This document shows, piece by piece, positions 2,914 through 48,211 of a stretch of 64,000 nt of DNA. Source of the DNA: an uncultured Gammaproteobacteria bacterium (lineage in GTDB: Bacteria; Patescibacteriota; Microgenomatia; CAZETR01; Amesbacteraceae). The translations under genes and the position numbers were made by a program. Positions within the stretch are counted from its first letter, which is position 1. The number at the start of each line of letters is the position of its first letter. The notes beneath the pieces are model-generated. The model was not told the DNA's origin. It saw only the letters and a list, made by a program, of their open reading frames with translations, and did not search any database. The DNA lies in contig CAZFGX010000001.1 in assembly GCA_964518565.1 (NCBI GenBank), positions 203,046 through 267,045 on the forward strand, read 5' to 3'.

Positions 2914-4516
2914 GTTTAAATCTTTTTCTATACGACTACGTACGCCAGGATCTAACTTCTGGCCTCAGTGGTTTTTGCCATTATTAGGAGTGATGTTGAT
3001 GGTAATTTCAATATGCTCATTTGTCTATTTCTCTGAAATTAATCTCACGCTTGCATACAACGACGCTCGGTCACATTTGAACATAGGTCGGCGTGTAGTT
3101 GAAGGGCTAAAACCAGGTCTAGCTCAGTTAGGTTCTGTATGGTTGCCACTCACACATCTACTAATGGCGCCTACAATTTGGAACGACACGATGTGGCATA
3201 CCGGGTTAGCTGGTGCCATGCAATCTATGCTCGCATTCATTATTACTGGGCTGCTTATCTCTACTATCTTGAATCGTTTAGGGGTTAATAGGCTAGGGCA
3301 ATTAATCGCCGTATTAATATTTGCCACAAACTTAAATATTTTATATTTACAGTCTACTGCAATGACTGAGTTGATGCTATTAGTCACGATGACAGCTGGT
3401 TGTTACTATCTGATCAAATGGCATCAAAATGATGCCGTATTAGATCTGGTGAAGTCGGGCTTTTGGATCATGCTTTCTACGCTTATCCGCTACGATGGCT
3501 GGTTTTTATTGTTAGTGGCATCAGCTCTAGTAGCATGGAATACCTTTAAAAAGCATAATATCAGAACCGCTGAAGGTACGGTTGTATTATTTTGTTCTTT
3601 GGCTGGATTTGGAATTGCCCTCTGGTTTTTATGGAATCTGCTAATCTTTAAAGATCCTTTATATTTTGCGTTTGGACCTTTCTCCGCGCACACCCAACAA
3701 GAACAACTTTTAGCCTCTGGTGGGCTACCCACAAAAGGCAATCTGGTTTTGTCTTCAGAGGTATATCTATATGCTCTTTTATATAATTCATATAGTTTGC
3801 CCGCAATTATTGCACTTGTTGGACTTATTTGTTTCATTTCTGACCGCTCACTCCCATCAAGTTCACGGATGGCTGGATTGTCACTGCTTGCGCCATTAGT
3901 GTTTAATGTCGTTGCGCTTTATATGGGACATTCTGTGCTATATTTGCCAGATTTTTCTGGAAATAGTTGGTTCAATATTCGATACGGAGTAATGACCATC
4001 CCCGCAATCGCTATTTTTTGTGGCTATGCAATAAAACGACTTACTCAGGCTAAATGGTTAATCATAGGCACGTTAATGTTAGTAATAGGGCTAGCCTTCT
4101 TCAACCATGATGCTGTGACAGTAGATGACGCACGTTATGGTAGTAGCCAAAAAAATGTGACCGAAGTCGCGGGCTTCCTCAATGTTCATGCCAAAAATCA
4201 GAAAGAATTCATTCTTATTTCAGCGGCTTCGCACGACGCTATTATTTTTTCCTCAGGTCTGCCAATGAAAAGATTTATTCACGAAGGTACGGGGGCATAC
4301 TGGGATTCTGCAACAATCAATCCTGACAGATGGGCACGTTGGATAATTATGCGCACCTATGATAATAGTGACTTGACCTGGAAAAACGTCAACAAAACCC
4401 CTGGATTTAGTAGATATGACTTAGTGGGTCATTATCCATTTGCAGATATTTACGAACTTAAACCGGAATTTGTCCCTCAACTGATCACCACCCCCATCTT
4501 CGCCAACCAGAAATAA
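2906..4516 (+). CDS. multi-pass membrane protein (hypothetical, glycosylation-associated)
   Basis: 536 aa, many hydrophobic segments, start overlaps upstream gene end. Confidence 0.45.
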   Translation: MTKFKSFSIRLRTPGSNFWPQWFLPLLGVMLMVISICSFVYFSEINLTLAYNDARSHLNIGRRVVEGLKPGLAQLGSVWLPLTHLLMAPTIWNDTMWHTGLAGAMQSMLAFIITGLLISTILNRLGVNRLGQLIAVLIFATNLNILYLQSTAMTELMLLVTMTAGCYYLIKWHQNDAVLDLVKSGFWIMLSTLIRYDGWFLLLVASALVAWNTFKKHNIRTAEGTVVLFCSLAGFGIALWFLWNLLIFKDPLYFAFGPFSAHTQQEQLLASGGLPTKGNLVLSSEVYLYALLYNSYSLPAIIALVGLICFISDRSLPSSSRMAGLSLLAPLVFNVVALYMGHSVLYLPDFSGNSWFNIRYGVMTIPAIAIFCGYAIKRLTQAKWLIIGTLMLVIGLAFFNHDAVTVDDARYGSSQKNVTEVAGFLNVHAKNQKEFILISAASHDAIIFSSGLPMKRFIHEGTGAYWDSATINPDRWARWIIMRTYDNSDLTWKNVNKTPGFSRYDLVGHYPFADIYELKPEFVPQLITTPIFANQK

Positions 4517-4562
4517 ATCTCGGGTTGTGCATAATACCCTATAGTTGTATAATTATCCCCAT

Positions 4563-6617
4563 ATGAAACTCGTCACCACAGTTATAAATCAGATCGATGA
4601 TCAGGACAAAAACCGATTTGATTCAACAAAAAAAACAAACAAGTTAAAAAGTCTTATAGTCGATATGCTATTGCTCATCCTTGTTGCAAGTATCGGCTTC
4701 ACCCATATTTATTATCTGGTAAACAGTCAATTATTTTCTACCGGATATAGTGACTGGTTAATCCAAGCTTTTCGAGTGCGTTTTATATCAGAATTTGGGC
4801 TCAGCTCTTGGACACATCTTTGGTCAAACGGAATCAGTTTGTGGAGAGGTTATCAGTTCTTACCACATATTCTTACTTCTGAAATTACCAAAATATTCCA
4901 AATAGAAATTACCCGAGCAATGGTCATCTTGACCGTCATTCAGTTTATTGGAATGAGATTTATAATATATGCCTTAGCTAGATCGCAAAAATTCTCAGCT
5001 ATAACTGGCTTAGTTGCTGTAATTCTTTCCTATGATATTGGTCAATATTGGGGAGGAGTAAATGATTACTCTATTTTATTTGGCTTTACAATTTTTCCAT
5101 TATATTTGGCTATATGGATCCAATATACCAAAGGTCGTATGCAATGGGTTCTCCCTTACATACTAGGAATAGCTTTTTATATCCATCCATTATTAGCCGT
5201 ATATTCTGCTGGATTGTGGTTTACAGGTCTGTTGTTCAAAAGTTTATCAAGACCAAGACCAAAAATCTTATTCGCTCAATTGGCCATTTTTGTTGCAAGC
5301 AGTTCACTTTTTTGGGTTCAGCATATCTCGGGGTATGTAAAAAACTATTCTTCGCCTTTTTTTATCAGTTTGGCATTTTTTAAACAAACACTGGCAAATT
5401 TTTCGGCTCTTGGTTTGAGTATTGCCGTACTTATTGGCGGGGGTGTATTGTGGGTAACGCTTCCCACTATTAGTCAATCGGCCCGTTGGACCAGGGCAAT
5501 AGCACTCTACAGTCTAATTTGTCTTGTTGGTGTATTAATTTCTATTAACGTTCAGTTGCCAGGGATAATTGCGGAAACACAGTTTAGTCGAGGTATGACA
5601 TTTATCGCTTTAGCAATAATCGTTGGATTGATGCCTATAATTGAGAAAATAAAACAATCCCCGAGCTCGACACTCAAGTATCTTTTTGTGGCGTGTATCT
5701 CGCTGAGTATGGTCGAATCTTTTTGGATTTCAGGATCATTTGCCCCTCACTCAGGCCTACCGATAGAAGACCCTGTTGTAGCACTTCAAAAAAAATATCC
5801 CGAAATGAATATTCAAAATTCTCGTATTTGGACTCCTTATCTTGATGTTGCAAATAATAAAGCAACATTAAATGAAAAATACCCTAATTCTTATATGACA
5901 CATTCAGATTCTAATCAGGTCTCTGTCCGTTTAAGCAATTTACTTCTATACAACTCATTTCAAGATCGTGTGCCGAATGTCTCTCTTGATCGAGTAAAAC
6001 AATACATGCAAATCACCGCAACGCCATATGTGATATTTGAAAAAAACTCTCCTTTTGTTCGTTCCATTTCAGTTGACGATTCCGATATTAAAGACTTAGG
6101 CGATATAGAGTTAAAACGAAATATATTTCATGCCTATAAACTACTCAATGTCTCGCAGTCAGCAATCATTATTGATCCAACTCAAATACAAAAACTAGTT
6201 AAATTCCCAGAATCATTAAATCCAGCTGACCCACTAGATCAAACTTCTCTTGATCAGTATGTCTCCGAGTGGGTGAATATGGTATATGATCCAAAAAACC
6301 AACCAGTCACGATTCAGTACTCTGCGCAAGACACATTAGATATTTCAATTCCAAAACAACGCCTTTCAAACACCGTTTATATCCCTGAAAGTTATTCCAA
6401 AAATTGGCAAGGCTGGTTCAATGGTCAAAAAGTAGATATTACTCCTGTTGGTCCAAATTTTATAAGAGTAGATATGCATCAATCTGGGTCGTATGGATTG
6501 CTAATTCTAAAACATAATTGGCCTACTATTTGGTATATATCTTTGGCGACAATTTTATTGCTACCGGCTTTGTATATTGTTTTAAAAACAACACATCTTG
6601 TTATCTCAACTAAATAA
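4563..6617 (+). CDS. large membrane protein with C-terminal extracytoplasmic domain (hypothetical)
   Basis: Track start 4545 is TTG; ATG at 4563; ~400 aa polytopic N-region plus ~250 aa soluble region and terminal TM. Confidence 0.45.
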   Translation: MKLVTTVINQIDDQDKNRFDSTKKTNKLKSLIVDMLLLILVASIGFTHIYYLVNSQLFSTGYSDWLIQAFRVRFISEFGLSSWTHLWSNGISLWRGYQFLPHILTSEITKIFQIEITRAMVILTVIQFIGMRFIIYALARSQKFSAITGLVAVILSYDIGQYWGGVNDYSILFGFTIFPLYLAIWIQYTKGRMQWVLPYILGIAFYIHPLLAVYSAGLWFTGLLFKSLSRPRPKILFAQLAIFVASSSLFWVQHISGYVKNYSSPFFISLAFFKQTLANFSALGLSIAVLIGGGVLWVTLPTISQSARWTRAIALYSLICLVGVLISINVQLPGIIAETQFSRGMTFIALAIIVGLMPIIEKIKQSPSSTLKYLFVACISLSMVESFWISGSFAPHSGLPIEDPVVALQKKYPEMNIQNSRIWTPYLDVANNKATLNEKYPNSYMTHSDSNQVSVRLSNLLLYNSFQDRVPNVSLDRVKQYMQITATPYVIFEKNSPFVRSISVDDSDIKDLGDIELKRNIFHAYKLLNVSQSAIIIDPTQIQKLVKFPESLNPADPLDQTSLDQYVSEWVNMVYDPKNQPVTIQYSAQDTLDISIPKQRLSNTVYIPESYSKNWQGWFNGQKVDITPVGPNFIRVDMHQSGSYGLLILKHNWPTIWYISLATILLLPALYIVLKTTHLVISTK

Positions 6618-6618
6618 T

Positions 6619-8097
6619 ATGTTTCATCGTTTACAACCTCTACCTATTTCACTTTTACTCTTTATCACCTTGACACCCTTGGCTATTTTTTACTATGCAA
6701 TATATGTATTTAATCCTGCAAACATTGGGTTTTTGCCTCTATATATATTTCAGGTTGCAGCAGACACGATTTCTATCCTGATTGCCACATCACTTTGGCT
6801 CACTCTTCTCTTAGACATTCTTCAGCCTGAACACCATAAACGAAAGTTGCAAAACAATCCTGAATGGCTCAAAAAAAATCAAGTCACAGTAGACGTGTTT
6901 GTAACCGTACTCAATGAACCCATTGAAATAGTCACCGGCACACTCCAAGCGGCCGTGGATATGGATTATCCTCATAAAACGTTTCTACTTGACGATGGTA
7001 ACTCAGCTGAAATGAAACAAATTGCTGACCAACTTAATATTGAGTACATAGCTCGTCCAGTCACAGGCCGAAAACATGCAAAAGCCGGAAATATTAACTA
7101 CGGTCTCCAACGCACTCATGGAGAGTTTTTTGCGATATTCGATGCAGATTTTTCTCCGCGAAAAAATTTTCTTACTAAATTACTCCCATTTTTTGAAAAT
7201 AAAAAAATCGCTTTAGTGCAAACACCTCAATCATATAGTAATACGCACAATTTTATAGCCAGTGGTACAGCACAAGCTCAGGAAATTTTTTATAAATTCG
7301 TCATGCCAGCAAAAAATAGTTACAATGCGGCATTTTGCGTGGGGACAAATATGATTTACCGTCGCGATTCAATTAATCAAATTGGGGGAATTGCCAAATT
7401 AGACCACTCAGAAGATATTTGGACAACAATCAACTTACATGAAAAAGGTTATGAGTCAGTTTTTTATCATCAAGTATTGGCTACTGGAAGAGCGCCTGAG
7501 ACAGTATCTGCTTTCTTTAGGCAGCAAAATCGCTGGTCACAAGGTGGATTCTCACTCATGTTCACGAATAACCCCCTATTTAGCAAGTCATTAACAGTCG
7601 ACCAAAAAATACAATACTTTCTCTCAAACATCTTTTTCTTTAGTGGCTTTTCAATACTTATTTATTTATTGTTACCACTAACCTTTCTATTATTTGGCAT
7701 TCACCCTATGAAGCTAAACTCGTTGGAGTGGATAAAGCATTATGTACCATTTTTTCTTGCGATGTATATCATGCCCCTGACATTAATAGGTAAACCAAAA
7801 CTTGCAACAATCAGTGTTGCTCTGGCCAGCTTTTATCCGTATATCCAGGGTTTTTTTTCAACATTATTTCAGTCAAAGTTTATTTGGGTACCTACAGAAG
7901 CCAAAAAGAAAATACCAAGCCTAATTTCAATGCAAATCTGGCCACATCTATTTATTATTTTTGTCTCACTTTTCTCTCTTATTATAGGATGGTATAATGC
8001 AAACGACATCACGACAACTGTGGCTACGAGTATTTGGGTATCATTAAACACATATATTTTATTTTCATTTTTAAAAAATAGCCAAATAAAAAGCTAA
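6619..8097 (+). CDS. processive GT2 beta-glycan synthase (cellulose/curdlan/chitin-synthase-like)
   Basis: Motifs 'LDDGNS', 'FDADF', 'LVQTPQSY', 'QQNRWSQGG' (QxxRW) flanked by TM helices; track start 6598 is TTG, ATG at 6619 directly after upstream stop. Confidence 0.75.
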   Translation: MFHRLQPLPISLLLFITLTPLAIFYYAIYVFNPANIGFLPLYIFQVAADTISILIATSLWLTLLLDILQPEHHKRKLQNNPEWLKKNQVTVDVFVTVLNEPIEIVTGTLQAAVDMDYPHKTFLLDDGNSAEMKQIADQLNIEYIARPVTGRKHAKAGNINYGLQRTHGEFFAIFDADFSPRKNFLTKLLPFFENKKIALVQTPQSYSNTHNFIASGTAQAQEIFYKFVMPAKNSYNAAFCVGTNMIYRRDSINQIGGIAKLDHSEDIWTTINLHEKGYESVFYHQVLATGRAPETVSAFFRQQNRWSQGGFSLMFTNNPLFSKSLTVDQKIQYFLSNIFFFSGFSILIYLLLPLTFLLFGIHPMKLNSLEWIKHYVPFFLAMYIMPLTLIGKPKLATISVALASFYPYIQGFFSTLFQSKFIWVPTEAKKKIPSLISMQIWPHLFIIFVSLFSLIIGWYNANDITTTVATSIWVSLNTYILFSFLKNSQIKS

Positions 8098-8103
8098 ATC
8101 AAT

Positions 8104-8892
8104 ATGTTTATACAAAAAATTATTCGATCAAGTATTGATATTTTTGTCATATTTTTCATATTTGTTTTTTCTGTAGTTATTTCAACTATAGGTTTAACCG
8201 TAAAAGCAAATCAGTACAAATCTGAAAAAAATAACATAGTCAAAATCACTGTATATAAAAAGCCTATTCCCATACTTTCAACCACAAAAGGAATCATCCA
8301 AAAAGTTCACGTTAGGCCGGGTCAGGAAGTGCGAAGAGGCGACATCTTAGTAGAAATCGACAACCCAGTGTTAAAAGGTAAGATCACTGCCTTACAAAAC
8401 TATCCAGACAATCTATCAGCCAGAACTGAAGCTGAAGTTGCTCAAATCGAGTTAAATTATTTAAATGTTCCCTCACCAGTTGATGGTGTAGTTGGCGAAA
8501 TTCAAGTAACAGATGGAGTACCTGTCCAAGAGTTAACCCCATTGCTATCTTTGTATTCAAATGAAGATGTGACACTGACTACAAGTTTATATACCGATCA
8601 GTATTTACAACTCAAACAACAATCACTGGTAAAAGCCTATAACGAAAGATTAAACCAGACATTCCTCCTCACTCCATCTTTAGTTCGACCAGATATCGAA
8701 ATTCCTGTCGATCAAACCGATCAAAAAAAGATTGGGTTATATTTCAATCTCTTGCATAAAGAAGAAGCAGCTAGCCTTTTACAAAATGAAGATATGGAAT
8801 TGAGTACGAGTGTGGATGCTGCCGAAAACCCAAATCGCCCAATAGATTACGTTATTAATTTTTGGAATAGAATCCTTTTCGCATCCGAGTGA
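8104..8892 (+). CDS. membrane-fusion (HlyD)-like protein, short form
   Basis: N-terminal TM; lipoyl-like hairpin 'VHVRPGQEVRRGDILVEID' and beta-barrel-like 'SPVDGVVGEIQVTDGVPV' typical of MFP adaptors. Confidence 0.4.
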   Translation: MFIQKIIRSSIDIFVIFFIFVFSVVISTIGLTVKANQYKSEKNNIVKITVYKKPIPILSTTKGIIQKVHVRPGQEVRRGDILVEIDNPVLKGKITALQNYPDNLSARTEAEVAQIELNYLNVPSPVDGVVGEIQVTDGVPVQELTPLLSLYSNEDVTLTTSLYTDQYLQLKQQSLVKAYNERLNQTFLLTPSLVRPDIEIPVDQTDQKKIGLYFNLLHKEEAASLLQNEDMELSTSVDAAENPNRPIDYVINFWNRILFASE

Positions 8893-10787
8893 AATTAGCA
8901 ATCTTTTTGGTCTCCATCTTCGCACTCTCTGCGCTGTTCGTTTGGTTTTTTTTCTCGCCAGAGAAAAAAAACACTTCAATTGAACAACCAACTTCAAAAT
9001 CAAGTCATTCTCTATCCACAATAAAATCAAATAAATGGTTTAGTTCTATATACAAAGGTATACCAACTGCACCACTATATGCTCAGCCATTGGTGTATAA
9101 ATTTACGGATAAAGGAATACAAATTTCTTACCCAAAAATTGTTGTCGAGCCAAATACAATCTTCAGCCCTTTTACCTCTGATATTCAAATAGGTATCGGA
9201 CAAACCATTTCTTCACTAGAACCAGCTCAGATAGGGGATTGGCATATCAAAGTAAAAGCAAGTTCACAGACCGAAAATTTTTTGACAACTATTGGTCAAG
9301 GTCTTCCATATACTTATTTACATTCATCAACTAAAAATTGGCAAATTGATTTCGAAACTGGATATACCACAATAAATAAAACAAATACTTCTCAAACAGT
9401 TATGACAAATGAAAATCTATACCTCATCGTCTGGGATAAATCCGCTACTCTCGATGAGAGTGAACACCAAATAAAAATTAGTAACTCAGAAAAACTTTTT
9501 ATTGCTGTACTCGATGATAAAGAACACGAAAATTTATTTAAACAAATCAGTGAAGGGGCAATTGAATCAACTCAGGTTTCTTGGACAATAGATGCAGATA
9601 CGATAAAAGAAAATTTTCAAATTCAGCAACAAGCCAAATCACTCATTGCAATATTGCCTCATCAATATGCTGGACTCGTCCAAACATTCCCAGCTTTGGG
9701 TCAATATCGTAGCATACGTGGTCCAATGACATTAATACAAACAAATAAATTTCAAATAAAAATTTTTAGAATCACTCCTCCAGAATCATTTTCCATAATG
9801 GATTCTCCTGATTCCACTTTACTAAATAGTTTTATCCAAGACTCAAATGAATTGTTAAACAATCCTATCCCAGAAAGCAAAAATTATGGCCTGAGTGTCT
9901 GGATGGGAAAAATGGCAAATCAAATTGAACTAGCAAATGCCCTCAGGCAAGAAGCAGAAAAAAAACTTCTCATTACTCGTGCCGGAGAAGCATTAGAAGC
10001 TATCAATGAGTGGTATGAATATGATTCTAGACAACAAAGCATTGTGTCCAAGAGTCCTGAATTTGGCAACGAACGGTTAAACGACCACCACTTCCATTAT
10101 GGTTATGTCATTCGATTGGCCGCTATTTTGAAAAGGTATGGATATCAAATCCCGGAAGCAACCCAGCTTCGTATCAATGAAATTGTTCAAGATATCGCCA
10201 CCAATGACAGACAATCTGATCGCTTCCCGTTTGTAAGAAATTTTGATTTTTACGAAGGCCATTCCTGGGCAGATGGCTATGCCCAGTTTGCAGACGGACA
10301 AAACCAGGAGTCGAGTTCTGAAGCCATAAATGCCTGGTATGGATTATATTTATGGGCAAAGGTAAATTCAGATCCTGAAACCGAAAAATTAGCAATATTC
10401 TTATTTAATAGTGAAATCTACAGCACCAAGTATTACTGGTTTAATATTGGCAATATCTATCCCAAGCCGTATGAGCACGCAATTGCGTCACTAGTTTGGG
10501 GTGGAAAAGTAGATTTCACTACCTGGTTCGGTAATGACACAAATTTCAAGTATGGTATTCAGATTCTGCCTGTTACCCCTGCGTCAGGCTATCTCAAGAC
10601 TATTCCTAACTTTTTCAACTATGAAGGGGATTTTTTGCGCAGTGGTGGCAGCTATGATCGACCCTGGGGGGAACTTATGCAATTTTGGAAATCCCAATCG
10701 ACACGAGAAATTAGCCTCGATATGCTGCCAAAACAGCCAGAAACCACCCCAAGGTCAATTTTAGAATATTTTCTGCTTGCCGAGTAA
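8889..10787 (+). CDS. secreted glycoside hydrolase, GH81-like endo-beta-1,3-glucanase
   Basis: GTG start overlapping upstream TGA; signal/TM anchor; motifs 'NDHHFHYGY' and 'ESSSEAINAWYG' recalled as GH81 signatures. Confidence 0.55.
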   Translation: MKLAIFLVSIFALSALFVWFFFSPEKKNTSIEQPTSKSSHSLSTIKSNKWFSSIYKGIPTAPLYAQPLVYKFTDKGIQISYPKIVVEPNTIFSPFTSDIQIGIGQTISSLEPAQIGDWHIKVKASSQTENFLTTIGQGLPYTYLHSSTKNWQIDFETGYTTINKTNTSQTVMTNENLYLIVWDKSATLDESEHQIKISNSEKLFIAVLDDKEHENLFKQISEGAIESTQVSWTIDADTIKENFQIQQQAKSLIAILPHQYAGLVQTFPALGQYRSIRGPMTLIQTNKFQIKIFRITPPESFSIMDSPDSTLLNSFIQDSNELLNNPIPESKNYGLSVWMGKMANQIELANALRQEAEKKLLITRAGEALEAINEWYEYDSRQQSIVSKSPEFGNERLNDHHFHYGYVIRLAAILKRYGYQIPEATQLRINEIVQDIATNDRQSDRFPFVRNFDFYEGHSWADGYAQFADGQNQESSSEAINAWYGLYLWAKVNSDPETEKLAIFLFNSEIYSTKYYWFNIGNIYPKPYEHAIASLVWGGKVDFTTWFGNDTNFKYGIQILPVTPASGYLKTIPNFFNYEGDFLRSGGSYDRPWGELMQFWKSQSTREISLDMLPKQPETTPRSILEYFLLAE

Positions 10788-10805
10788 TTGACTATAGGGT
10801 ATAAT
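10776..10805 (+). promoter_or_regulatory. sigma70-like promoter TTGCCG-18-TATAAT upstream of giant PA14 gene
   Basis: Sequence 'ttgccgagtaattgactatagggtataat'; ATG at 10839. Confidence 0.3.
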
Positions 10806-10838
10806 GCCTTTACTTCCTGCTCTCCTAAACACCGTCTC

Positions 10839-13800
10839 ATGAAAAAAATCATTACATTCTTTATAGGGCTTTTTGCGCTGGTTTTAGCTGGCAGCTTATC
10901 GCCTAAAAGTATATTCGCTGCGCCTCCGCAAAACTTTCAAACCTCAGCCATAATTTCTACTGGGCTAGACGGACCTAGCGGCTTCCAATTTGCCCCGGAT
11001 GGTCGAATATTTATTCTACAAAGAACTGGAGAGGTAAAAATATATAAAAATGGCCAATTACTAGCGAATAATTTCATCACCCTTCCTTCTATCGCCTCAG
11101 GAGACCGTGGATTAATTGGTATTGCCTTTGATCCTGACTATGCTTCAAATAAATATGTATATTTTTATTACACCGCCTTAGACAAGCTTAACTATTTAGT
11201 AAGATTCTCAGCCGTGAACGATACCGCCAGTGATGGTCCGGTTATTATTTACCACACTACAAGCCCATCAGAACAATTACATGTTGGAGGAGGAATAGCT
11301 TTTGGAAATGACGGAAAACTTTATTTCACGGTCGGGGATAATGGATACCCTCCAAACGCACAAAGCTTAGATAATCCACACGGAAAGATACTTCGTATAA
11401 ACAAAGATGGTAGTATTCCCTCGGATAATCCGTTTGTAAACACTCCTGGTGCTTTACCTGAAATCTGGGCATACGGGTTAAGAAACCCTTGGCGTCTACA
11501 GTTTGATAGCACTACAGGAAAATTATATGACGGCGATGTGGGTCAAAATACCTGGGAAGAAGTGAATCTAATTGAGAAGGGGAAAAATTACGGCTGGCCG
11601 ACATGTGAAGGCAATTGTGGCACTTCCGGAATGACGAATCCAATCTATACCTACAACCATGACGGCTTGAGCTCTGCAGTCACAGGTGGTCCTGTATATC
11701 GTGGCACAATGTTCCCTTCTAGCTATGTCGGCAGATATTTTTTTGCCGATTATGCCCGAGGATTTATTCGCACCCTAGGGCTGGATGCAAATGGCAATTC
11801 AACCGACATGTCTGTATTTGATGCCAATGCCGGTACGCCGGTAGACCTGAGAGTTGCTCCAGATGGTTCGCTATATTACATCACCTATTATCCTGGTCGT
11901 TTGTATCGAATCACATATTCAACAACCAACCAGGTTCCAACTGCTTCAGCCGGTAGCAATGCCACAAAAGGATTGAGTCCTTTTACCGTAAACTTCACTT
12001 CAGCCGGATCAAGTGATCCAGAGAATAATCCCTTAAGTTTTTTTTGGGACTTCGGTGACGGTCAAACAAGTACTCAAGCCAATCCGTCTCATACATATAC
12101 AAATAATGGCTCATATCTTGCTCAGCTGACTGTGAGCGATGGTGTGAATACAGTAGATGCTATCCCCATTGTCATACAGGTTGGTATCGCCCCCACGGTG
12201 ACCATTGGTATGCCTGCAAATAACTCGCAATATAAATCTGGTGATTCAATCACATACTCGGTTTCTGCTACTGATGGCGTGGGAAACGATATGAATGACA
12301 ACGATATTGGCGTTGAAATCCTATTCCACCATTTGACCCACATTCACCCGTTTTTAGGTCCTCTGTATGGCAGAAACGGTACATTTGTAATTCCCACTAC
12401 AGGTGAACCATCCGATGCTACCTGGTTTGAGATCAAAGCTACAGCCACTGACACAAATGGACTTTCAACTACGAAATCGGTTTTTATCTACCCAAAAGTC
12501 GTTGACCTGACCTTCCAAACAAACCCCACTGGCTTACAAATTACACTCGATGGCGAACCTACCACTACGCCACAAACTATAAAGCATGTTGTTGGTTTTC
12601 AGCGTGAACTTTCAGCTAATGGTCCTCAATATGTTGGTGCAGACGTTTATCAATTTTCTGGTTGGTCCGATGGGGGAGGAGCAACACATACAATTTCCGT
12701 ACCAAATGTAAACACCACATATACAGCCAATTTTACAAAAACAGGCACAGTAGTACCATTTTCTGCGCAATATTTTTCTAACCAAAACCTTACGGGTTCC
12801 CCAACACTAACCAAAAACGACAATTTTATTAATTTTGATTGGGGAATAAATGCACCTGATTCCGCAATACCTGCAGACAACTTTTCTGTTCGCTGGACAA
12901 AAACAGACTCCTTTTCAGCTGGTAGTTATGAATTCTCAGTCACAGCCGACGACGGTCTGCGTCTATATATCGACAACAACCTAGTTATCGACAAGTGGGT
13001 AGACCAAGGAGCAACAACTTATAAAACCACTCAAGTTCTCACATCTGGTAATCACACCATCAAAATGGAGTACTATGAAAATGGTTACGATGCAGTCGCA
13101 AAATTAAACTGGATTCAATTGTCGGGCAATACCCCTACACCAACACCGACATCAATTCCTAGTGACCCAAATGCATTTTCTGGACAGTACTTCAACAATA
13201 AAAGTTTGACGGGTAATCCAGCCTTCACCAGAAATGACACAAATATAAACTTTGATTGGGCAGCGGGTAGTCCAGACCCAGTAATCACAGCAGACAACTT
13301 CTCTGTTCGCTGGACAAAAACATTGAACATTACTTCAGCTGGTGATTACAAGTTCTCAGTCACAGCCGATGATGGTGTTCGACTCAAAGTTGACGGCACA
13401 ACCATCATCGACAAATGGCAAGATCAGGCAGCCTCTATCTATACATCCACCGTAAATCTGGGACTAGGTAATCACACAGTAATCATGGAATACTATGAGA
13501 ATGGTGGAGAAGCAGTAGCAAAACTATCATGGTCTCAAATCACTCAAGTTCCAACACCCACCCCAACTCCAAATACAACAAATTCATTTACGGGTCAGTA
13601 CTGGAACATAGTTTGGAATGGAAATCCACAAATTCCTTCAACGAATCCAACTCTAACCAGACAAGACTCAAATATAAATTTTGATTGGGCATTAGTTTCT
13701 CCAGGCGCTGGTATAAACGCCGACGACTTTGTTGCTCGTTGGACCAAAACCGAGACATTTACTGCTGGTACATATCGTTTCTCAGTCACAGCCGATGATG

Positions 13801-15218
13801 GTGTACGTCTGTATGTGGACAACAACCTAGTCATCGACAAATGGCAACTCCAAGGTGCAACAACATACACTACAGATCAAATCCTTAGTGCCGGCGCTCA
13901 CACCATAAAAATGGAGTATTACGAACATCAAGAGGATGCAGTAGCCAAACTCTCTTGGACGTCTTTGACAACCGTACCTACTCCAACACCTACTCCGATA
14001 GTAAGTTCCAATTCATTCACAGGTGAATATTTTAATAATACGACCCTTTCTGGGACTCCTTCTCTTACTCGAGTCGATACAGATATTAATTTCGACTGGG
14101 CAAATGGGAATCCAGGATCCCCAATCCCAGCAGACAACTTCTCTGTTCGCTGGACAAAAACATTGAACATTACTTCAGCTGGTGATTACAAGTTCTCAGT
14201 CACAGCCGATGATGGTGTTCGACTCAAAGTTGACGGCACAACCATCATCGACAAATGGCAAGATCAGGCAGCCTCTACATATAATAGTACTAAGACTCTC
14301 GCTTCAGGCAACCATACCGTAGTTATGGAATATTACGAGAACTCTGGCTTAGCAGTTGCAAAACTCTCTTTTTCTCAAGTATCTGCAGCCCCAACTCCAA
14401 CACCGACGCCGTCCTTGAGTAATACCTTTACAGGAGAATATTGGAATGTAACTTGGACTGGTATACCAAATATTCCCAACGTGCCTGCCAATGTAGTGCG
14501 TACTGATGCAGATATCAATTTCGACTGGGCGCAATTAGCCCCAGCATCAGGTATAAACGCCGACGACTTTGTTGCTCGTTGGACCAAAACCGAGACATTT
14601 ACTGCTGGTACATATCGTTTCTCAGTCACAGCCGATGATGGTGTACGTCTGTATGTGGACAACAACCTAGTCATCGACAAATGGCAACTCCAAGGTGCTG
14701 CTACCTATACAACTGACCTAGTTTTAACTGCAGGTTCTCATGCCATAAAAATGGAGTATTTCGAACATCTTTTTGATGCAGTATCCAAATTAAGTTGGAC
14801 TAGTTTGGGAACACCGACTCCTACACCAACCCCAGCTCCCACTAATAATTTTGTTGGCCAATACTTTACAAATTCAAATCTATCGGGTGCTCCGTCTCTT
14901 GAACGTACTGACGCTCAAATCAATTTCGATTGGGGTTATGGTTCCCCGGCCGGAAGTATTCCTGTAGACAACTTTTCTGCCCGTTGGACTAAAACAGACA
15001 ACTTTGTAGGTGGCAATTATCAATTCTCTGTTTCATCAGATGATGGACTAAGAATAAAAGTTGACGGTACAAGTATCTATGATCAATGGATAGATCAGGC
15101 AGCAAATCCACAAACAATTACTGTTCCAATTAGTTCAGGTAGTCACACCATTACCGTCGAATATTACGAAAACGATTTAACTGCTAGTTGCCAAGTTTCA
15201 TGGGCTGCACTTCCGTAA
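10839..15218 (+). CDS. giant secreted protein: PQQ-type glucose/sorbosone dehydrogenase beta-propeller + PKD + Ig-like + 6x PA14 domains
   Basis: Track start 10788 is TTG; ATG 10839 gives signal peptide MKKIITFFIGLFALVLAGS; GSDH motifs 'GKILRINKDGSIPSDNPF', 'YGLRNPWR'; PKD 'WDFGDGQTS'; six ~120-aa PA14 units ('FSVRWTKT...FSVTADDGVRL..DG..IDKW...MEYYE') separated by PTPTPTP linkers. Confidence 0.8.
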   Translation: MKKIITFFIGLFALVLAGSLSPKSIFAAPPQNFQTSAIISTGLDGPSGFQFAPDGRIFILQRTGEVKIYKNGQLLANNFITLPSIASGDRGLIGIAFDPDYASNKYVYFYYTALDKLNYLVRFSAVNDTASDGPVIIYHTTSPSEQLHVGGGIAFGNDGKLYFTVGDNGYPPNAQSLDNPHGKILRINKDGSIPSDNPFVNTPGALPEIWAYGLRNPWRLQFDSTTGKLYDGDVGQNTWEEVNLIEKGKNYGWPTCEGNCGTSGMTNPIYTYNHDGLSSAVTGGPVYRGTMFPSSYVGRYFFADYARGFIRTLGLDANGNSTDMSVFDANAGTPVDLRVAPDGSLYYITYYPGRLYRITYSTTNQVPTASAGSNATKGLSPFTVNFTSAGSSDPENNPLSFFWDFGDGQTSTQANPSHTYTNNGSYLAQLTVSDGVNTVDAIPIVIQVGIAPTVTIGMPANNSQYKSGDSITYSVSATDGVGNDMNDNDIGVEILFHHLTHIHPFLGPLYGRNGTFVIPTTGEPSDATWFEIKATATDTNGLSTTKSVFIYPKVVDLTFQTNPTGLQITLDGEPTTTPQTIKHVVGFQRELSANGPQYVGADVYQFSGWSDGGGATHTISVPNVNTTYTANFTKTGTVVPFSAQYFSNQNLTGSPTLTKNDNFINFDWGINAPDSAIPADNFSVRWTKTDSFSAGSYEFSVTADDGLRLYIDNNLVIDKWVDQGATTYKTTQVLTSGNHTIKMEYYENGYDAVAKLNWIQLSGNTPTPTPTSIPSDPNAFSGQYFNNKSLTGNPAFTRNDTNINFDWAAGSPDPVITADNFSVRWTKTLNITSAGDYKFSVTADDGVRLKVDGTTIIDKWQDQAASIYTSTVNLGLGNHTVIMEYYENGGEAVAKLSWSQITQVPTPTPTPNTTNSFTGQYWNIVWNGNPQIPSTNPTLTRQDSNINFDWALVSPGAGINADDFVARWTKTETFTAGTYRFSVTADDGVRLYVDNNLVIDKWQLQGATTYTTDQILSAGAHTIKMEYYEHQEDAVAKLSWTSLTTVPTPTPTPIVSSNSFTGEYFNNTTLSGTPSLTRVDTDINFDWANGNPGSPIPADNFSVRWTKTLNITSAGDYKFSVTADDGVRLKVDGTTIIDKWQDQAASTYNSTKTLASGNHTVVMEYYENSGLAVAKLSFSQVSAAPTPTPTPSLSNTFTGEYWNVTWTGIPNIPNVPANVVRTDADINFDWAQLAPASGINADDFVARWTKTETFTAGTYRFSVTADDGVRLYVDNNLVIDKWQLQGAATYTTDLVLTAGSHAIKMEYFEHLFDAVSKLSWTSLGTPTPTPTPAPTNNFVGQYFTNSNLSGAPSLERTDAQINFDWGYGSPAGSIPVDNFSARWTKTDNFVGGNYQFSVSSDDGLRIKVDGTSIYDQWIDQAANPQTITVPISSGSHTITVEYYENDLTASCQVSWAALP
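13288..13858 (+). repeat. intragenic duplicated unit copy 1 (two PA14 domains)
   Basis: 13288-13437 is 100% identical to 14128-14277 and 13711-13858 is 100% identical to 14551-14698 (840-bp offset); flanks diverged. Confidence 0.85.
14128..14698 (+). repeat. intragenic duplicated unit copy 2 (two PA14 domains)
   Basis: See copy 1; identical cores verified by direct reading. Confidence 0.85.
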
Positions 15219-15246
15219 CAGTGTCTCAGGCCGTAATATAAACCTT

Positions 15247-16521
15247 ATGACTCGTAAATATCTTATTTCTTCGTCAGCTATGATTCTCGTGGGAATGTGT
15301 ATCTTCATGTATGCGAAAACCAAATCAGCTCTGTCTGCCGAGGAGACTTTACATCCAAAATTTTGGTCGGTGCAATCTATAGATACAGTCAAATACTCTC
15401 GAGACGTTGCTCGCGAAAAACTACATGATAGTAGTTTTGACACGACAATTGACGCCCAGATAAAACAAATAGCTTCAACCGGTGCAACGCATGTTGCTAT
15501 TGGTACTCCATACGACGACGAATTTTTACCATATCTAAAACGTTGGGTATCTGCAGCTCGTACACACAATCTCCATGTGTGGTTTAGAGGAAATTGGTCC
15601 GGCTGGGAAGGATGGTTTAATTATCCAAATATCACTGCTAAACAACATGTTTCCCAAACAGTTGTTTTTATAAAAAATAATCCTGACTTATTTGTGGATG
15701 GTGACATTTTTAGCCCATGTCCCGAGTGTGAAAATGGTCAAATTGGTGACCCACGTCAAACAGGTAAAATTCAAGAATTTCGCCAGTTTCTTATAGATTT
15801 AACCAATGGATGTGAAACTGCTGCAACTGAAATTAAAAAATCAATAATTTGTAACTACCATTCCATGAATGGAGATGTAGCTAGACTAATCATGGACAAG
15901 GAAACGACGCAAAAATTAGGAGGAGTAGTTGTTGTAGATCACTATGTGAAAGAACCCACTCAAATGGCTAAAGATCTCAAGGAATTTGCACTTCAGACCG
16001 GAGGCAAAGTAGTTCTAGGAGAATTTGGCGCCCCTTTACCAGATATTCACGGTAACATGTCCCAAGAACAACAAGCAGCATGGATATCTGAGACATTAAA
16101 CCAAGTAATTGAAATTCCCGAAGTGGTTGGGGTGAATTATTGGACGAATGTTGGTGGATCTACTGGTCTATGGGACTCTCATAACCAGCCAAGAGTAGGA
16201 GTGTCCTCCTTGTCACAAATTTATCAACCTAATGAAATAATTATCCACGTAAAAAATATAATTGATAAACCCATAGTCAGTAGTGCACTGTATTTAGATA
16301 AAACATTTGCTAGTGACAAAACAGGCAGTATTCGTTTACCAAAACAATTAAATAAATCAGTTATCCCTGCGATTATTATTGCTGCAGATGGGTATAAAGA
16401 TCAGGGAGTATATTTAGGAGCCACAGAGGCAGAAACAACAATTGTCTTAGAAAAACAATCTGAAAGTATATGGTTCAAACTCCAAGTATTGCTTTTTAAG
16501 CTATCCCATAGTATAATATAA
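15247..16521 (+). CDS. membrane-anchored clan GH-A (GH5-like) glycoside hydrolase
   Basis: N-terminal TM; TIM-barrel-like strands; 'HYVKEP' (NEP-like acid/base) and 'VVLGEFGAP' (nucleophile Glu) motifs. Confidence 0.45.
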   Translation: MTRKYLISSSAMILVGMCIFMYAKTKSALSAEETLHPKFWSVQSIDTVKYSRDVAREKLHDSSFDTTIDAQIKQIASTGATHVAIGTPYDDEFLPYLKRWVSAARTHNLHVWFRGNWSGWEGWFNYPNITAKQHVSQTVVFIKNNPDLFVDGDIFSPCPECENGQIGDPRQTGKIQEFRQFLIDLTNGCETAATEIKKSIICNYHSMNGDVARLIMDKETTQKLGGVVVVDHYVKEPTQMAKDLKEFALQTGGKVVLGEFGAPLPDIHGNMSQEQQAAWISETLNQVIEIPEVVGVNYWTNVGGSTGLWDSHNQPRVGVSSLSQIYQPNEIIIHVKNIIDKPIVSSALYLDKTFASDKTGSIRLPKQLNKSVIPAIIIAADGYKDQGVYLGATEAETTIVLEKQSESIWFKLQVLLFKLSHSII

Positions 16522-16526
16522 ATACT

Positions 16527-17408
16527 GTGAAGATATCAACAAAAGTTTCGTCCGCGATTCTTATCATGGTTTCCTTAGGACTACAGGCTAGTCCTGTATT
16601 AGCATCGTATACTCCAAATTTTCCTGCGTGTCCTAATCCGGGTGGTAATCTGACCGCTCAATATAATTCAGGTTTACACGGTATTCCAGGTGACTCACAA
16701 GAATATGTTGGATCTGATTCAGTATTTCAAATTAATTCAACCCAGTGGGTTCAATGTTTTTGTCCACAAAACGGTGCAGGAATTCAAACAAACTGGTTAC
16801 TACTCCAAGATCCTTCCGAGTCTGAAATATCAGCATACAAAAACCAAGGCTGGGTATTTATTCCAGATGGATCTGCCTGGGGACTTCAAGCTGCTAGTTA
16901 TGTAGCTCAAAATAGCTCGATTTCATGTGTTGGTGGCACAGGAAATGGTAACGATAGTTCAGCAAATACCAACTCTTCTAATACATCAGTTTGTGATTCG
17001 ATCAAACCAGGCACTCCAGTATTAACTTCAATAAAACGAATAGGATCAACAGCAACCCTTTCTTGGAATCCTGTTCAAAACGCTACTCATTACTCAATTT
17101 CTTATGGAGTCGAATCAGGTAAATATTTATACGGTGTTCCGAATACAGGCAATGTGACTCAATTCACCATTGGTAGCCTAGATCCAAATAAAACTTATTA
17201 CTGGGAAGTACGAGCCGTCAACAATTGTATGCCATCAGACGCTTCCTCCCAGCCTTCAGCTGCTCGAGGTGGTGGGGATATCCTGGGTAGTTCTACAGGG
17301 TTTGCACCTACTGGAGATTGGTCAATACTTATTCTAGCTGCAGGTATTGGGTGTATATTGACTGGTCTATCAGTGGCTATGAGAAATGGCCATGAATCAA
17401 AAAAATAA
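16527..17408 (+). CDS. secreted fibronectin-type-III surface protein with C-terminal sorting-signal-like tail
   Basis: GTG start, signal peptide; FN3 'LSWNPVQNATHYSISYG...YYWEVRAVN'; C-terminus 'GFAPTGDWSILILAAGIGCILTGLSVAMRNGHESKK' (motif+TM+basic tail). Confidence 0.55.
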   Translation: MKISTKVSSAILIMVSLGLQASPVLASYTPNFPACPNPGGNLTAQYNSGLHGIPGDSQEYVGSDSVFQINSTQWVQCFCPQNGAGIQTNWLLLQDPSESEISAYKNQGWVFIPDGSAWGLQAASYVAQNSSISCVGGTGNGNDSSANTNSSNTSVCDSIKPGTPVLTSIKRIGSTATLSWNPVQNATHYSISYGVESGKYLYGVPNTGNVTQFTIGSLDPNKTYYWEVRAVNNCMPSDASSQPSAARGGGDILGSSTGFAPTGDWSILILAAGIGCILTGLSVAMRNGHESKK

Positions 17409-17895
17409 TCTCTCCAGACTTTTATTCTTTCTTGGGCTCCTTTGCTTTGTTTTTGTTGGAGTGTTGATAGTAGATCGGTTAAAAAATAATACGGTATCCT
17501 TTGACCAGCTTCCTGTCACTTCTGAGACAAATACACAACCAGACGGTATCGAAATATCTACCCAACAAATCCGACTTGCCGTTGTCTCAAAAAAAGTTGA
17601 AAAAAGCTTTCCCACATCAAAAACAACCGCTATACATATTCAAGGTACAAACATATATTACGCTCACAACTGGCCAAACTTATTTGGAAATCTTAAAAAG
17701 ATTAAAATCAACGATCCAATAGTAATCCATTTCTCCAACGGTCAAATAAAAAAATATCTGGTCACTCAAACTGAATCTGTGTGGCCATCGGACACGAGTA
17801 TTTTAAATCAGAACAATTCAGAAACGATTGTCGTCTATACATGTACGGGAGTTTTTGACATCAAAAGGTTGGTCATAGTGGCTAAATCTGTTTGA
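17386..17895 (+). CDS. sortase family transpeptidase
   Basis: N-terminal TM, conserved His region 'IHIQGTNIYYAHNWPN', catalytic 'VVYTCTG' (TLxTC) motif; overlaps 3' end of FN3 gene. Confidence 0.7.
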   Translation: MAMNQKNNLSRLLFFLGLLCFVFVGVLIVDRLKNNTVSFDQLPVTSETNTQPDGIEISTQQIRLAVVSKKVEKSFPTSKTTAIHIQGTNIYYAHNWPNLFGNLKKIKINDPIVIHFSNGQIKKYLVTQTESVWPSDTSILNQNNSETIVVYTCTGVFDIKRLVIVAKSV

Positions 17896-23624: not shown

Positions 23625-23654
23625 TTGACGGTGCTCATACTTGAATCCCATAAT
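23625..23654 (+). promoter_or_regulatory. putative promoter TTGACG-18-CATAAT
   Basis: Ends 7 nt before ATG 23662, suggesting a leaderless or short-leader transcript. Confidence 0.25.
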
Positions 23655-23661
23655 AGGCTTC

Positions 23662-33382: not shown

Positions 33383-33386
33383 ATAT

Positions 33387-48208: not shown

Positions 48209-48211
48209 CTT

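Follow-up and report, generated by a model that had tools for sequence, protein, structure and literature searches.

A conserved synthase, short adaptor and GH81 hydrolase as the probable core of a curdlan-like envelope-glucan system

Do five adjacent genes, read as making, exporting, trimming and modifying a beta-glucan, form one self-contained extracellular module? This had been proposed from sequence alone for part of the 64,000-nucleotide stretch of DNA analysed here (the window), which comes from a CPR/Patescibacteria bacterium with a tiny genome. We assigned families with Pfam, NCBIfam and PDB searches. All five ORFs were recovered on the + strand, closely packed between 6598 and 16521, and their family calls were confirmed; the gene list was incomplete in that it left out a conserved upstream GT-C gene (4563-6617). 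Just part of the five-gene stretch is a conserved unit, namely the trio of GT2, short adaptor and GH81 genes. The features of the locus are the following:

503-4516, + strand: upstream flanking module with a small GT2 (503-1411) and GT-C-like membrane proteins (1333-2913 and 2906-4516)
4545/4563-6617, + strand: X690, GT-C gene, ending 1 nt before the GT2 start
6598/6619-8097, + strand: GT2 synthase gene; the database copy (P0001) begins at ATG 6619 and has 492 aa
8104-8892, + strand: HlyD-type adaptor gene, 262 aa, after a 6-nt gap from the GT2 gene
8889-10787, + strand: GH81 gene, 632 aa, overlapping the adaptor gene by 4 nt
10788-15218, + strand: giant ORF; 1459 aa from ATG 10839, with a signal-like N-terminus
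15247-16521, + strand: Y424, membrane-anchored clan GH-A protein
16527-17895, + strand: downstream flanking module with an fn3 surface protein (16527-17408) and a sortase (17386-17895)
26033-27169: DPMS/GtrA-type gene within the window

The product of 6619-8097 is predicted to be a processive membrane GT2 of the BcsA/CrdS type and thus a putative beta-glucan synthase, as the sequence-only reading had it. It matched Glyco_trans_2_3 in Pfam at 1e-22 and Cellulose_synt more weakly, its best PDB matches were BcsA chains (5e-48), and the alignment to 4hg6 spanned residues 95-487, including the membrane region. The D,D,D,QxxRW signature was present, with motifs DDG, DAD, SED and QQNRW invariant among 21 homologues. 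A PilZ domain is absent from the 492-aa protein, which scored 252 bits with TIGR03030 (CelA, NCBIfam), under the 699-bit cut-off. In a rough NJ tree this GT2 and its Actinomycetota and CPR homologues formed a clade of their own, apart from CrdS, BgsA and BcsA. Two active-site motifs, FCVGT and SED, are common to this clade and the CrdS-like sequence only, the corresponding motifs being FCCGS/TED in BgsA and FFCGS/TED in BcsA. Overall similarity does not favour CrdS (BLAST bits of 134-187 to CrdS-like, 157-219 to BgsA and 174-228 to BcsA-like sequences), and in a motif comparison the clade did not have in common the CrdS channel residues H374, W422, E439 and H442, which Oehme et al. tied to CrdS specificity (PMC6821405).

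Domain matches identify the product of 8104-8892 as a putative short HlyD-type membrane-fusion or adaptor protein. HlyD_D23 (37.4 bits) and HlyD_3 (30.5 bits) both exceeded their Pfam gathering cut-offs, Biotin_lipoyl_2 matched as well, and the architecture consists of an N-terminal TM helix (residues 13-31), a lipoyl-like domain and a beta-barrel domain. The barrel domain begins near residue 120, as against residues 235-277 in CrdA-like and BgsB-like proteins, and these coordinates suggest that there is almost no alpha-hairpin.

The GH81 call for 8889-10787 also held: its product is, judging by family match and motifs, a homologue of GH81 endo-beta-1,3-glucanases with a single N-terminal hydrophobic segment (residues 3-21) that may be an anchor or a signal. 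It matched Glyco_hydro81C (Pfam, 5e-49) and CtLam81A (6fop, 6e-66 across residues 37-598), and its NDHHFHYGY and NQESSSEAINAW motifs are intact. While a regex scan of GT2-linked GH81s recovered the first motif in 36/40 and the second, searched in a narrower version, in 20/40, both ND(H)HFHYGY and DGNNQES[STV]SE were found in all 16 copies that we inspected directly, regex failures included. The GT2-linked GH81 therefore looks active.

The trio was found again in 12 CPR loci and ∼30 Actinomycetota loci. A genome scan gave 80 loci, 39 of this GT2 clade and 41 BcsA-like controls, and every GT2 above 285 bits (n = 39) came from Actinomycetota or CPR. GH81 lay within the cassette in 36/39 clade loci versus 0/41 controls (Fisher p ∼1e-19, a value that overstates independence because the counted loci come from phylogenetically related genomes). 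With a profile of the CPR adaptor copies, a ∼250-aa homologue was detected right after the GT2 in 37/39 clade loci and in none of the 41 controls, and Pfam upheld the HlyD-type family in 8/8 adaptor ORFs tested. Among the CPR loci, GT2 and adaptor occurred together in 12/12, and a GH81 gene was no more than three genes away in 10 of the 11 informative ones. The GT2/GH81 adjacency thus spans two very distant lineages, and the genes often overlap. The closest relative (L089) has all five genes in the same order; co-conservation, which had been suggested as a check on the whole stretch, was strong for synthase, adaptor and GH81 and did not extend to the giant and GH-A proteins. For the trio, none of the outcomes named beforehand as refuting the sequence-only reading (a non-processive GT2, a non-glucanase hydrolase or lack of co-conservation) was observed. 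Five of the loci with the cassette belong to Cellulomonas (L031, L025, L033, L041 and L047), a genus known to produce curdlan, for which neither the synthase genes nor the re-use enzymes have been identified (PMC3544764).

Y424 belongs to the flanking GT-C/fn3/sortase module and not to the glucan cassette. It combines a (beta/alpha)8 fold of clan GH-A with a beta-sandwich at the C-terminus and has two invariant, candidate catalytic glutamates, E151 (CPECENG) and E248 (LGEFGAP). Its best structural match was GH5_18, a subfamily that contains beta-mannosidases for N-glycan cores and is not known to include glucanases. More than 2200 homologues were found at E ≤ 1e-4, and, of the top 120, nearly all that carried a name were from CPR. 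The upstream module, whose proteins gave weak PMT_2 and LA_3751-family matches, is syntenic in L089 and L091, and homologues directly adjoin Y424 in L094 and are found close to it in L093. Downstream, the fn3 domain was recognised by Pfam and the sortase by a family match, and the fn3 protein ends in FAPTG, a hydrophobic stretch and a basic tail, resembling a sorting signal. Y424, fn3 protein and sortase stay together in L089, L091, L092 and L093.

The giant protein is a secreted, lineage-restricted accessory. It comprises a GSDH domain (PF07995, 223 bits, 1e-65), one PKD domain and six PA14 stretches, and its propeller matched Asd/sGDH-type dehydrogenases in the PDB (1e-35) and retains the LHxGG histidine. 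The gene contains six repeats of ∼420 nt, arranged as ABABAB; modules 2 and 4 share 96-nt stretches at 100% identity, as do modules 3 and 5. The GC content of the gene is 0.42 versus ∼0.35 in the flanks, and both this higher GC and the recent duplications within the gene fit an accessory insertion. Homologues near the cassette were found only in L089 and L001.

The gene missing from the original list, X690, appears to encode a GT-C-fold membrane glycosyltransferase and a CPR-specific partner of the synthase. Besides ∼9 TM helices it has a beta-rich extracytoplasmic domain of ∼290 aa and a TM helix at the C-terminus. Its first outer loop contains a GYxDW motif in which D64 is near-invariant, and the protein reached no Pfam or NCBIfam threshold. 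The family is small (186 representatives among 1.84 billion), and all members that could be located were on CPR contigs. One relative, P0300, is a fusion with a DPMS-like GT2 (5mlz, 3e-42), and relatives gave weak YfhO and PTPS_related matches. An X690-type gene lies directly upstream of, or overlaps, the GT2 gene in 11/12 CPR loci; we know of no described system in which a GT-C gene abuts a processive GT2 glucan synthase gene in this way. GT-C genes crowd this genome, and the adjacency of X690 and synthase may partly reflect that.

The gene families and their folds are established here, as are the intact catalytic motifs and the conserved gene order. We infer the type of linkage, the formation of a complex, the topology and the GT-C and accessory roles as follows. 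On balance, the core is probably a synthase-dependent beta-glucan system suited to a cell without an outer membrane, with a curdlan-like beta-1,3 product. Since the trio is shared with many Gram-positive Actinobacteria, it is probably an undescribed machine that makes and trims a curdlan-like envelope glucan. The GT2 would polymerise glucose from UDP-glucose at the cytoplasmic face and pass the chain across the membrane by way of a channel of its own. The adaptor, anchored by one helix and lacking a long TolC-docking hairpin, would most likely serve as an outer-face collar that receives the chain, and GH81, held by its N-terminal hydrophobic segment, would cut, release or remodel the polymer outside the cell, much as BcsZ/KORRIGAN do for cellulose and Eng1 for the fungal beta-1,3-glucan wall. 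In CPR only, the GT-C protein would most likely decorate the glucan, or attach it, as it emerges at the outer face, with a polyprenyl-phosphate sugar as donor, which is suggested by the DPMS-like GT2 fusion and the DPMS/GtrA-type gene at 26033-27169. The giant protein may be a sugar-binding, possibly sugar-oxidising accessory. The cassette is embedded in a large glycosylation/sortase island, with the GH-A protein as part of the neighbouring module.

The beta-1,3 linkage is suggested by the GH81 partner and by the two CrdS-like motifs. The same system might have another product, i.e. cellulose, mixed-linkage beta-1,3/1,4-glucan or another beta-glycan, which we consider unlikely; the linked GH81 subfamily would then have an unseen specificity or cut just the 1,3 bonds in a mixed polymer. 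Homologues of the GT2 are labelled cellulose synthase by JGI, its top PDB and NCBIfam matches are BcsA/CelA, and in BLAST it scores slightly better against BcsA-like sequences than against CrdS-like ones. Linkage cannot be read from the synthase sequence, because mixed-linkage glucan was shown to be the product of one BcsA-like GT2 from a Gram-positive bacterium (PMC10374906), and few bacterial GH81s have been characterised, three before the enzyme of PMC9609564. However, the GH81s characterised so far are all endo-beta-1,3-glucanases that act on barley glucan or CMC weakly if at all (PMC9609564), so that a beta-1,3-glucan, as first read from the GT2/GH81 pairing, is the most economical interpretation. 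The canonical GH81 motifs, the replacement of FFCGS/TED by CrdS-type FCVGT/SED, the absence of PilZ, BcsB and a GH8 partner, and a TIGR03030 score far under its cut-off likewise speak against another product.

It is improbable that all five genes are one self-contained functional module, with a glucan that is modified by the dehydrogenase and trimmed by the GH-A enzyme. Tight co-oriented packing, the shared order in the closest relative, PA14 and GSDH domains that are plausible glycan binders and oxidisers, and the glycosidase fold and conserved glutamates of Y424 would fit such a module. It does not fit, however, that GTC1–GTC2–Y424(–fn3–sortase) occurs without GT2, HlyD and GH81 in three other CPR genomes (L092, L093 and L094), that Y424 best matches GH5_18, and that the giant, with its insertion-like gene, lies beside the trio in just 3/12 CPR loci, being absent from the other nine and from all actinobacterial loci examined. 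Far less credible still is a nutritional or antagonistic GH81 directed at foreign beta-1,3-glucans (fungal walls, laminarin), its place beside the GT2 being functionally meaningless. Genome papers do treat actinobacterial GH81s as degradative or antifungal (PMC3544764, PMC12823222), and the characterised bacterial ones are secreted biomass enzymes (PMC9609564). This is at odds with the GT2 adjacency in 36 clade loci and none of the controls, with the single hydrophobic segment that precedes the catalytic domain in 12/14 sampled copies, and with retention of the gene in CPR genomes of roughly 1 Mb. Moreover, a Pfam scan of six GT2-linked copies gave no match outside the GH81 domain, whereas the characterised BH0236 and PsLam81A carry CBM56 (PMC9609564).

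A synthase paired with an HlyD-family protein is already known, the HlyD-family member being encoded by the crdA equivalent in an Agrobacterium crdASC-like locus and being BgsB in bgsBA (PMC13438883). We found no published description of a GH81 partner for such a synthase, or of such a system in a monoderm setting. Like the Agrobacterium curdlan system crdASC (HlyD-family CrdA, GT2 synthase CrdS, and CrdC), whose beta-1,3-glucan product it would share, the cassette pairs a PilZ-less membrane GT2 with an HlyD-family protein, and FCVGT, SED and QTPQ are shared with the CrdS-like sequence, as is a K270 equivalent in CPR. However, the GT2 is just 33% identical to that sequence and not monophyletic with it, the adaptor has 262 instead of 484 aa and apparently no long hairpin region, its gene lies downstream rather than upstream of the synthase gene, and no CrdC homologue was found; crdASC, from diderm instead of monoderm or CPR hosts, has neither GH81 nor GT-C. 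Rhizobial bgsBA (with TolC) also couples synthesis to secretion through an HlyD-like membrane-fusion protein and a GT2 (PMC13438883). It makes a mixed-linkage glucan, its 669-aa BgsA has a C-terminal c-di-GMP-binding domain besides the FCCGS/TED motifs, BgsB (∼410 aa) operates with TolC across the outer membrane, and there is no glycoside hydrolase or GT-C partner.

The cellulose systems (BcsA–BcsB–BcsZ and plant CesA with KORRIGAN) share the synthase superfamily, with BcsA aligned over the channel region, and a dedicated endoglucanase encoded with, or required by, the synthase. They differ in that the hydrolase is GH8 or GH9 (beta-1,4) instead of GH81 (beta-1,3), and the cassette lacks BcsC as well as PilZ and BcsB. 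Fungal GH81 enzymes Eng1/Eng2 are endo-beta-1,3-glucanases that act on beta-1,3-glucan made by the fungus itself, as when its cells separate; there, unlike here, the synthase is GT48 (FKS), the genes are unclustered and no adaptor is involved. X690 resembles CsbB/GtrB with YfhO and other polyprenyl-phosphate-sugar GT-C systems (AftA, PMT, ArnT) in its relatives' weak matches, its relative's DPMS-like fusion and the DPMS/GtrA-type gene in the window, but it belongs to a small CPR-located family below every Pfam and NCBIfam threshold. The giant's N-terminal propeller, with its LHxGG histidine, resembles PQQ-dependent soluble aldose/glucose dehydrogenases (Asd/YliI and sGDH, CAZy AA12 relatives), from which the protein differs in that the predicted PQQ-type propeller is fused to PKD and six PA14 domains and is linked to the cassette in only a few genomes.

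The five open reading frames that a sequence-only reading of this stretch had grouped into one self-contained beta-glucan module are all real, lie on the + strand and are spaced by -4 to +51 nt. As a single glucan unit, this claim holds for three of them (the GT2, adaptor and GH81 genes), which are joined in CPR bacteria by a GT-C membrane protein, here called X690, that the first reading had missed; it does not hold for the five genes as listed. The window has a low GC content (about 0.35), and the source names on the GT2 homologues are Levybacteria, Moranbacteria, Parcubacteria or Patescibacteria, which places the DNA in a member of the CPR/Patescibacteria. The genes concerned are the following.

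4563-6617: X690, membrane protein of GT-C fold
6619-8097, + strand: GT2 synthase, matching Glyco_trans_2_3 and, more weakly, Cellulose_synt (Pfam)
8104-8892, + strand: adaptor, matching HlyD_D23 (37.4, cut-off 30), HlyD_3 (30.5, cut-off 22.2) and Biotin_lipoyl_2 (33, cut-off 29.8)
8889-10787, + strand: GH81 protein, matching PF17652 with 167.9 bits (cut-off 25.6)
10839-15218, + strand: giant protein with a GSDH propeller, one PKD domain and six PA14 modules
15247-16521, + strand: Y424, the GH-A protein

The GT2 protein carries the processive signature D, D, D, QxxRW together with KAG and QxPQ/H motifs, in the form of DDG, DAD, SED, QQNRW, HAKAGN and QTPQ, and DDG, DAD, SED and QQNRW were unchanged across 21 homologues. 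Hydrophobic helices flank the GT domain on both sides. BcsA chains were the top PDB matches (5e-48), and the alignment with 4hg6 spans residues 95-487, including the membrane region, while the gating-loop motif reads WVPTEAK as against FxVTxK.

Conservation of the genes was assessed from the neighbourhoods of GT2 homologues and from a GT2-alignment scan with one genome per GTDB species, in which all ORFs of the collected loci were searched with the window proteins. Among the 12 CPR loci, including the window, the adaptor lies immediately 3' of the GT2 gene in every case, GH81 is at most three genes away in 10 of the 11 informative loci, and X690, an unannotated membrane protein of ~680 aa, stands directly 5' of the GT2 gene in 11 of the 12, usually overlapping it by 4-20 nt. 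The GH81 gene is mostly downstream; Moranbacteria have it upstream, and one CPR locus (L090) carries it on the other strand. In the closest relative (L089), whose GT2 is 60% identical, the entire 12-gene order of the window is preserved.

Among the 80 loci scanned, all GT2s scoring above 285 bits fell into one group of 39 loci, with GT2s that are 33-57% identical over their full length and come from Cellulomonas, Demequina, Curtobacterium, Microbacterium, Nocardioides, Actinoplanes, Propionibacterium, Saccharibacteria, Peribacteria and other CPR. A GH81 gene follows just 3' in 36 of these 39 loci, as against none of the 41 lower-scoring BcsA-like loci (Fisher p ~1e-19, for genomes that are not independent). 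A phmmer search of the actinobacterial loci with the window adaptor alone gave no match at E ≤ 1e-5. These loci have an ORF of adaptor size (~250 aa) between GT2 and GH81, and a profile of 11 CPR adaptors matched 0-250 nt past the GT2 stop in 37 of the 39 group loci and in 0 of the 41 controls. When adaptor-position ORFs were searched against Pfam, HlyD_3 was found above the gathering cut-off in all eight tested and HlyD_D23 in seven. Since GH81 and the adaptor are linked to GT2 in both lineages, the conserved unit is GT2 – short HlyD-type adaptor – GH81, and the gene order is thus kept in CPR and Actinomycetota relatives for this cassette. Co-evolution, measured as the rank correlation of GT2 with GH81 scores, was not significant (rho 0.19).

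Several loci depart from the single-copy arrangement. Demequina sp. SO4-13 (L017, 6804-16303) has two tandem cassettes in the order GT2–GH81–GT2–GH81, and in an Actinoplanes locus (L014) one GH81 is flanked by two GT2s of the clade; these pairs agree with the two CrdS-like GT2s per genome described for Cellulomonas (PMC3544764). In one CPR genome (L006, 7996-10005) the X690 homologue is present as two ORFs, whether by frameshift, pseudogene formation or faulty assembly, and no GH81 was seen inside the sequenced flanks; the system may be degenerating at this locus. A rough NJ tree, built without support values, groups the Saccharibacteria GT2 (L020, L036) with Actinomycetota and apart from other CPR. 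As Saccharibacteria live as epibionts on Actinomycetota, a transfer of the cassette between host and epibiont is conceivable.

The window adaptor has lipoyl and beta-barrel domains above threshold and a single N-terminal TM helix (residues 13-31) as its anchor, as is characteristic of HlyD-type membrane-fusion proteins. It is ~150-220 residues shorter than its CrdA-like counterpart (from the Agrobacterium crdASC-type locus) and its BgsB-like counterpart (from the rhizobial mixed-linkage glucan system), and its beta-barrel starts near residue 120, compared with residues 235-277 in those proteins. Because the lipoyl halves are only ~30 residues apart and the barrel begins so early, the long alpha-helical hairpin for docking to TolC, which works with BgsB (PMC13438883), appears from the domain coordinates to be missing. 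Such a hairpin-less adaptor is consistent with cells that have no outer membrane, a condition that we infer for the CPR hosts of the cassette. Actinomycetota have no outer membrane. The crdASC locus likewise has an HlyD-family partner, but that of the window is short and 3' of GT2. BLAST detected no pairwise similarity between the window adaptor and the CrdA-like protein, no CrdC-like protein was found, and Y424 showed no similarity to the CrdC-like protein by BLAST.

The third member of the cassette is matched nearly over its full length (residues 37-598) by CtLam81A (6fop; 6e-66) and retains the GH81 motifs NDHHFHYGY and NQESSSEAINAW, to which the catalytic Asp, Glu and Glu of solved GH81s are assigned. 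The catalytic motifs were intact in every GT2-linked GH81 inspected directly, including copies that an initial regular expression had failed to match, and a hydrophobic segment precedes the catalytic domain in 12 of 14 GT2-linked GH81s sampled.

Several products were considered for the GT2. Against a cellulose synthase of the BcsA type stand scores of 252.6 bits against TIGR03030 (CelA/BcsA; cut-off 699.1) and 210 against NF008558 (BcsA; cut-off 992), and a Pfam search gave no PilZ match in a protein whose C-terminus lies ~60 aa past the gating loop. BgsA, the mixed-linkage synthase, has 669 aa, a C-terminal c-di-GMP-binding domain and the motifs FCCGS and TED, whereas the window GT2 has 492 aa and the motifs FCVGT and SED. 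A PNAG- or chitin-like product came into consideration because of a polysaccharide-deacetylase-type ORF at 99-506; it was rejected, as the PgaC and NodC scores of the GT2 were very low and we assign this ORF to the flanking module. With CrdS, for which a protein of the pAtA6 locus served as reference (apart from 2 mismatches, the first gene of this locus opens with the ribosome-site and start string published for crdA; PMC10819609), overall identity was 33% (181 bits), no better than with BgsA or BcsA, and in the rough NJ tree the GT2 clade is a branch of its own, separate from CrdS. Being about equidistant from CrdS, BgsA and BcsA, the GT2 gives no information on linkage through overall similarity.

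FCVGT (FCCGS in BgsA, FFCGS in BcsA) and SED (TED in the others) are common to the CrdS-like protein and the clade only, which also have QTPQ, Q237 and Q259 in common. K270 of CrdS is kept by the CPR members and by one actinobacterial sequence of the four shown, with R at this place in the other three. Of the channel residues that have been tied to CrdS (Oehme et al. 2019; PMC6821405), W422, E439 and H442 have no counterpart in the clade, and H374 has one in the Peribacteria sequence alone. A BcsA-like Gram-positive GT2 makes a mixed-linkage glucan (PMC10374906), and linkage can therefore not be read reliably from sequence alone. The beta-1,3 product already proposed in the sequence-only reading is nevertheless the best-supported candidate, mainly because the obligate partner belongs to GH81, a family with endo-beta-1,3-glucanase as its sole activity on record (PMC9609564); together, the GH81 linkage and the motifs suggest that the GT2 would make a linear beta-1,3-glucan. 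Circumstantial support comes from Cellulomonas, a curdlan maker whose synthase and re-use enzymes are unidentified and whose genomes encode two GT2s each, 35-39% identical to CrdS (PMC3544764); the cassette GT2 of C. uda and the CrdS-like protein share 34% identity.

X690 reached no family threshold in Pfam or NCBIfam. It has a GT-C membrane fold whose first outer loop carries a conserved acidic residue, the near-invariant D64 of a GYxDW motif; for some relatives there are weak matches to YfhO and PTPS_related. With 186 representatives in 1.84 billion, the family is small. One member (P0300) is fused to a GT2 matching dolichol-phosphate mannose synthase (5mlz; 2.8e-42), which indirectly implies that the donor may be a polyprenyl-phosphate sugar; a DPMS/GtrA-type gene is present at 26033-27169 of the window. 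X690 may add decorations to the glucan or link it to an acceptor. It showed no detectable paralogy with the neighbouring GT-C genes, and the idea that it is a paralogue of adjacent GTC2 was rejected (hhalign probability 0.1%).

Two genes fall outside the glucan system. The Y424 family has >2200 matches at E ≤ 1e-4, of which the source-named ones are nearly all CPR. In three CPR genomes (L092-L094) Y424 lies beside GTC1–GTC2 (upstream) and/or an fn3 protein and a sortase (downstream), and no GT2, HlyD or GH81 gene was found near it; in the window, L089 and a further CPR locus (L091), the glucan block sits between GTC2 and Y424. Y424, which had been counted as a glucan hydrolase of the module, is therefore part of the flanking GTC1–GTC2/fn3–sortase module. 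The giant protein is accessory: it adjoins the cassette in no loci other than the window, L089 and L001, its gene has a GC content of 0.42 compared with about 0.35 in the flanks, and it has undergone recent two-module duplication. Its propeller matches the family of PQQ-dependent soluble sugar dehydrogenases (PF07995, 222.7 bits against a cut-off of 25), and in alignments with solved enzymes the LHVGGG histidine is conserved. The PA14 region (12800-15110) consists of six ~420-nt repeats in an ABABAB pattern, which were resolved by a repeat search, while Tandem Repeats Finder reported nothing there. Stretches of 96 nt are 100% identical between modules 2 and 4 and between modules 3 and 5, which indicates that a two-module unit of 840 nt was duplicated recently. 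Ahead of the giant gene (10777-10805) lies a single 10/12 promoter-like site, from a promoter/terminator scan of 1-20 kb of the window that yielded nothing enriched over shuffles.

We consider it rather probable that the membrane GT2 synthesises a curdlan-like glucan that is exported through the adaptor and trimmed by GH81, with a GT-C partner in CPR. Our confidence is higher for a synthase-dependent beta-glucan system as such; it is lower for the type of linkage and for what the GT-C protein does. The pairing of a GT2 synthase with GH81 had been thought unfamiliar. The synthase-adaptor principle is already known, GT2 and HlyD genes being paired in bgsBA of R. etli and S. meliloti and in the crdASC-like locus, but no relevant description of GT2–GH81, HlyD–GH81 or a CPR glucan system was found in the searchable literature, nor one of a GH81 partner, a hairpin-less adaptor in monoderms or GT-C coupling.

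To our knowledge, curdlan synthesis genes come only from Agrobacterium-type diderms. The cassette offers a concrete candidate for a Gram-positive curdlan locus that can be checked in culturable Actinomycetota. We put forward, tentatively and as a wider reading that may well prove wrong, that it is a monoderm machine for curdlan synthesis and turnover, which would explain how Cellulomonas makes and re-uses curdlan, and that a dedicated GT-C protein in CPR adds branches to the glucan or anchors it by means of a lipid-linked sugar, so that these ultra-small episymbionts would have a beta-1,3-glucan envelope layer resembling a fungal wall. The cassette would also be a case of HlyD-type adaptors serving polysaccharide synthases in cells without an outer membrane, and bacterial GH81 enzymes, usually taken as biomass-degrading or antifungal, would in many cases have a housekeeping role beside a synthase. 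CPR envelopes are, as far as we know, almost uncharacterised, and a retained beta-glucan system with a GT-C protein bears on how episymbionts build their surface and attach to hosts.

The surroundings of the cassette showed further features. The deacetylase-type ORF at 99-506 is the first of a co-directional block and is syntenic in L089, where its homologue has 253 aa, so that mechanical ORF calling has probably truncated the window copy. The Y424–fn3–sortase trio also occurs in L089, L091, L092 and L093; in the window (fn3 protein and small sortase, 16527-17895) the fn3 C-terminus reads FAPTG followed by a hydrophobic stretch and a basic tail, and looks like a sortase sorting signal. Several CPR genomes encode a CAP/cysteine-rich secretory-family protein at a distance of a few genes from either the cassette or the Y424 module (window 23641-24519, L090 14420-15379, L091 16775-17368, L093 15318-16268). 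The window is a glycosylation island throughout its 64 kb (1333-6617, 28301-40592 and 46592-60887, also 26033-27169 and 40945-46570), with at least ten to a dozen genes for GT-C-type membrane glycosyltransferases (PMT_2, PTPS_related, STT3-like), mostly as tandemly arrayed ORFs of ~480-550 aa. Other genes of the island encode many GT2 proteins, GT4 and GT87 proteins, a GT2+PMT_2 fusion (28301-30484) and, in the DPMS/GtrA-type gene, a polyprenyl-phosphate sugar synthase.
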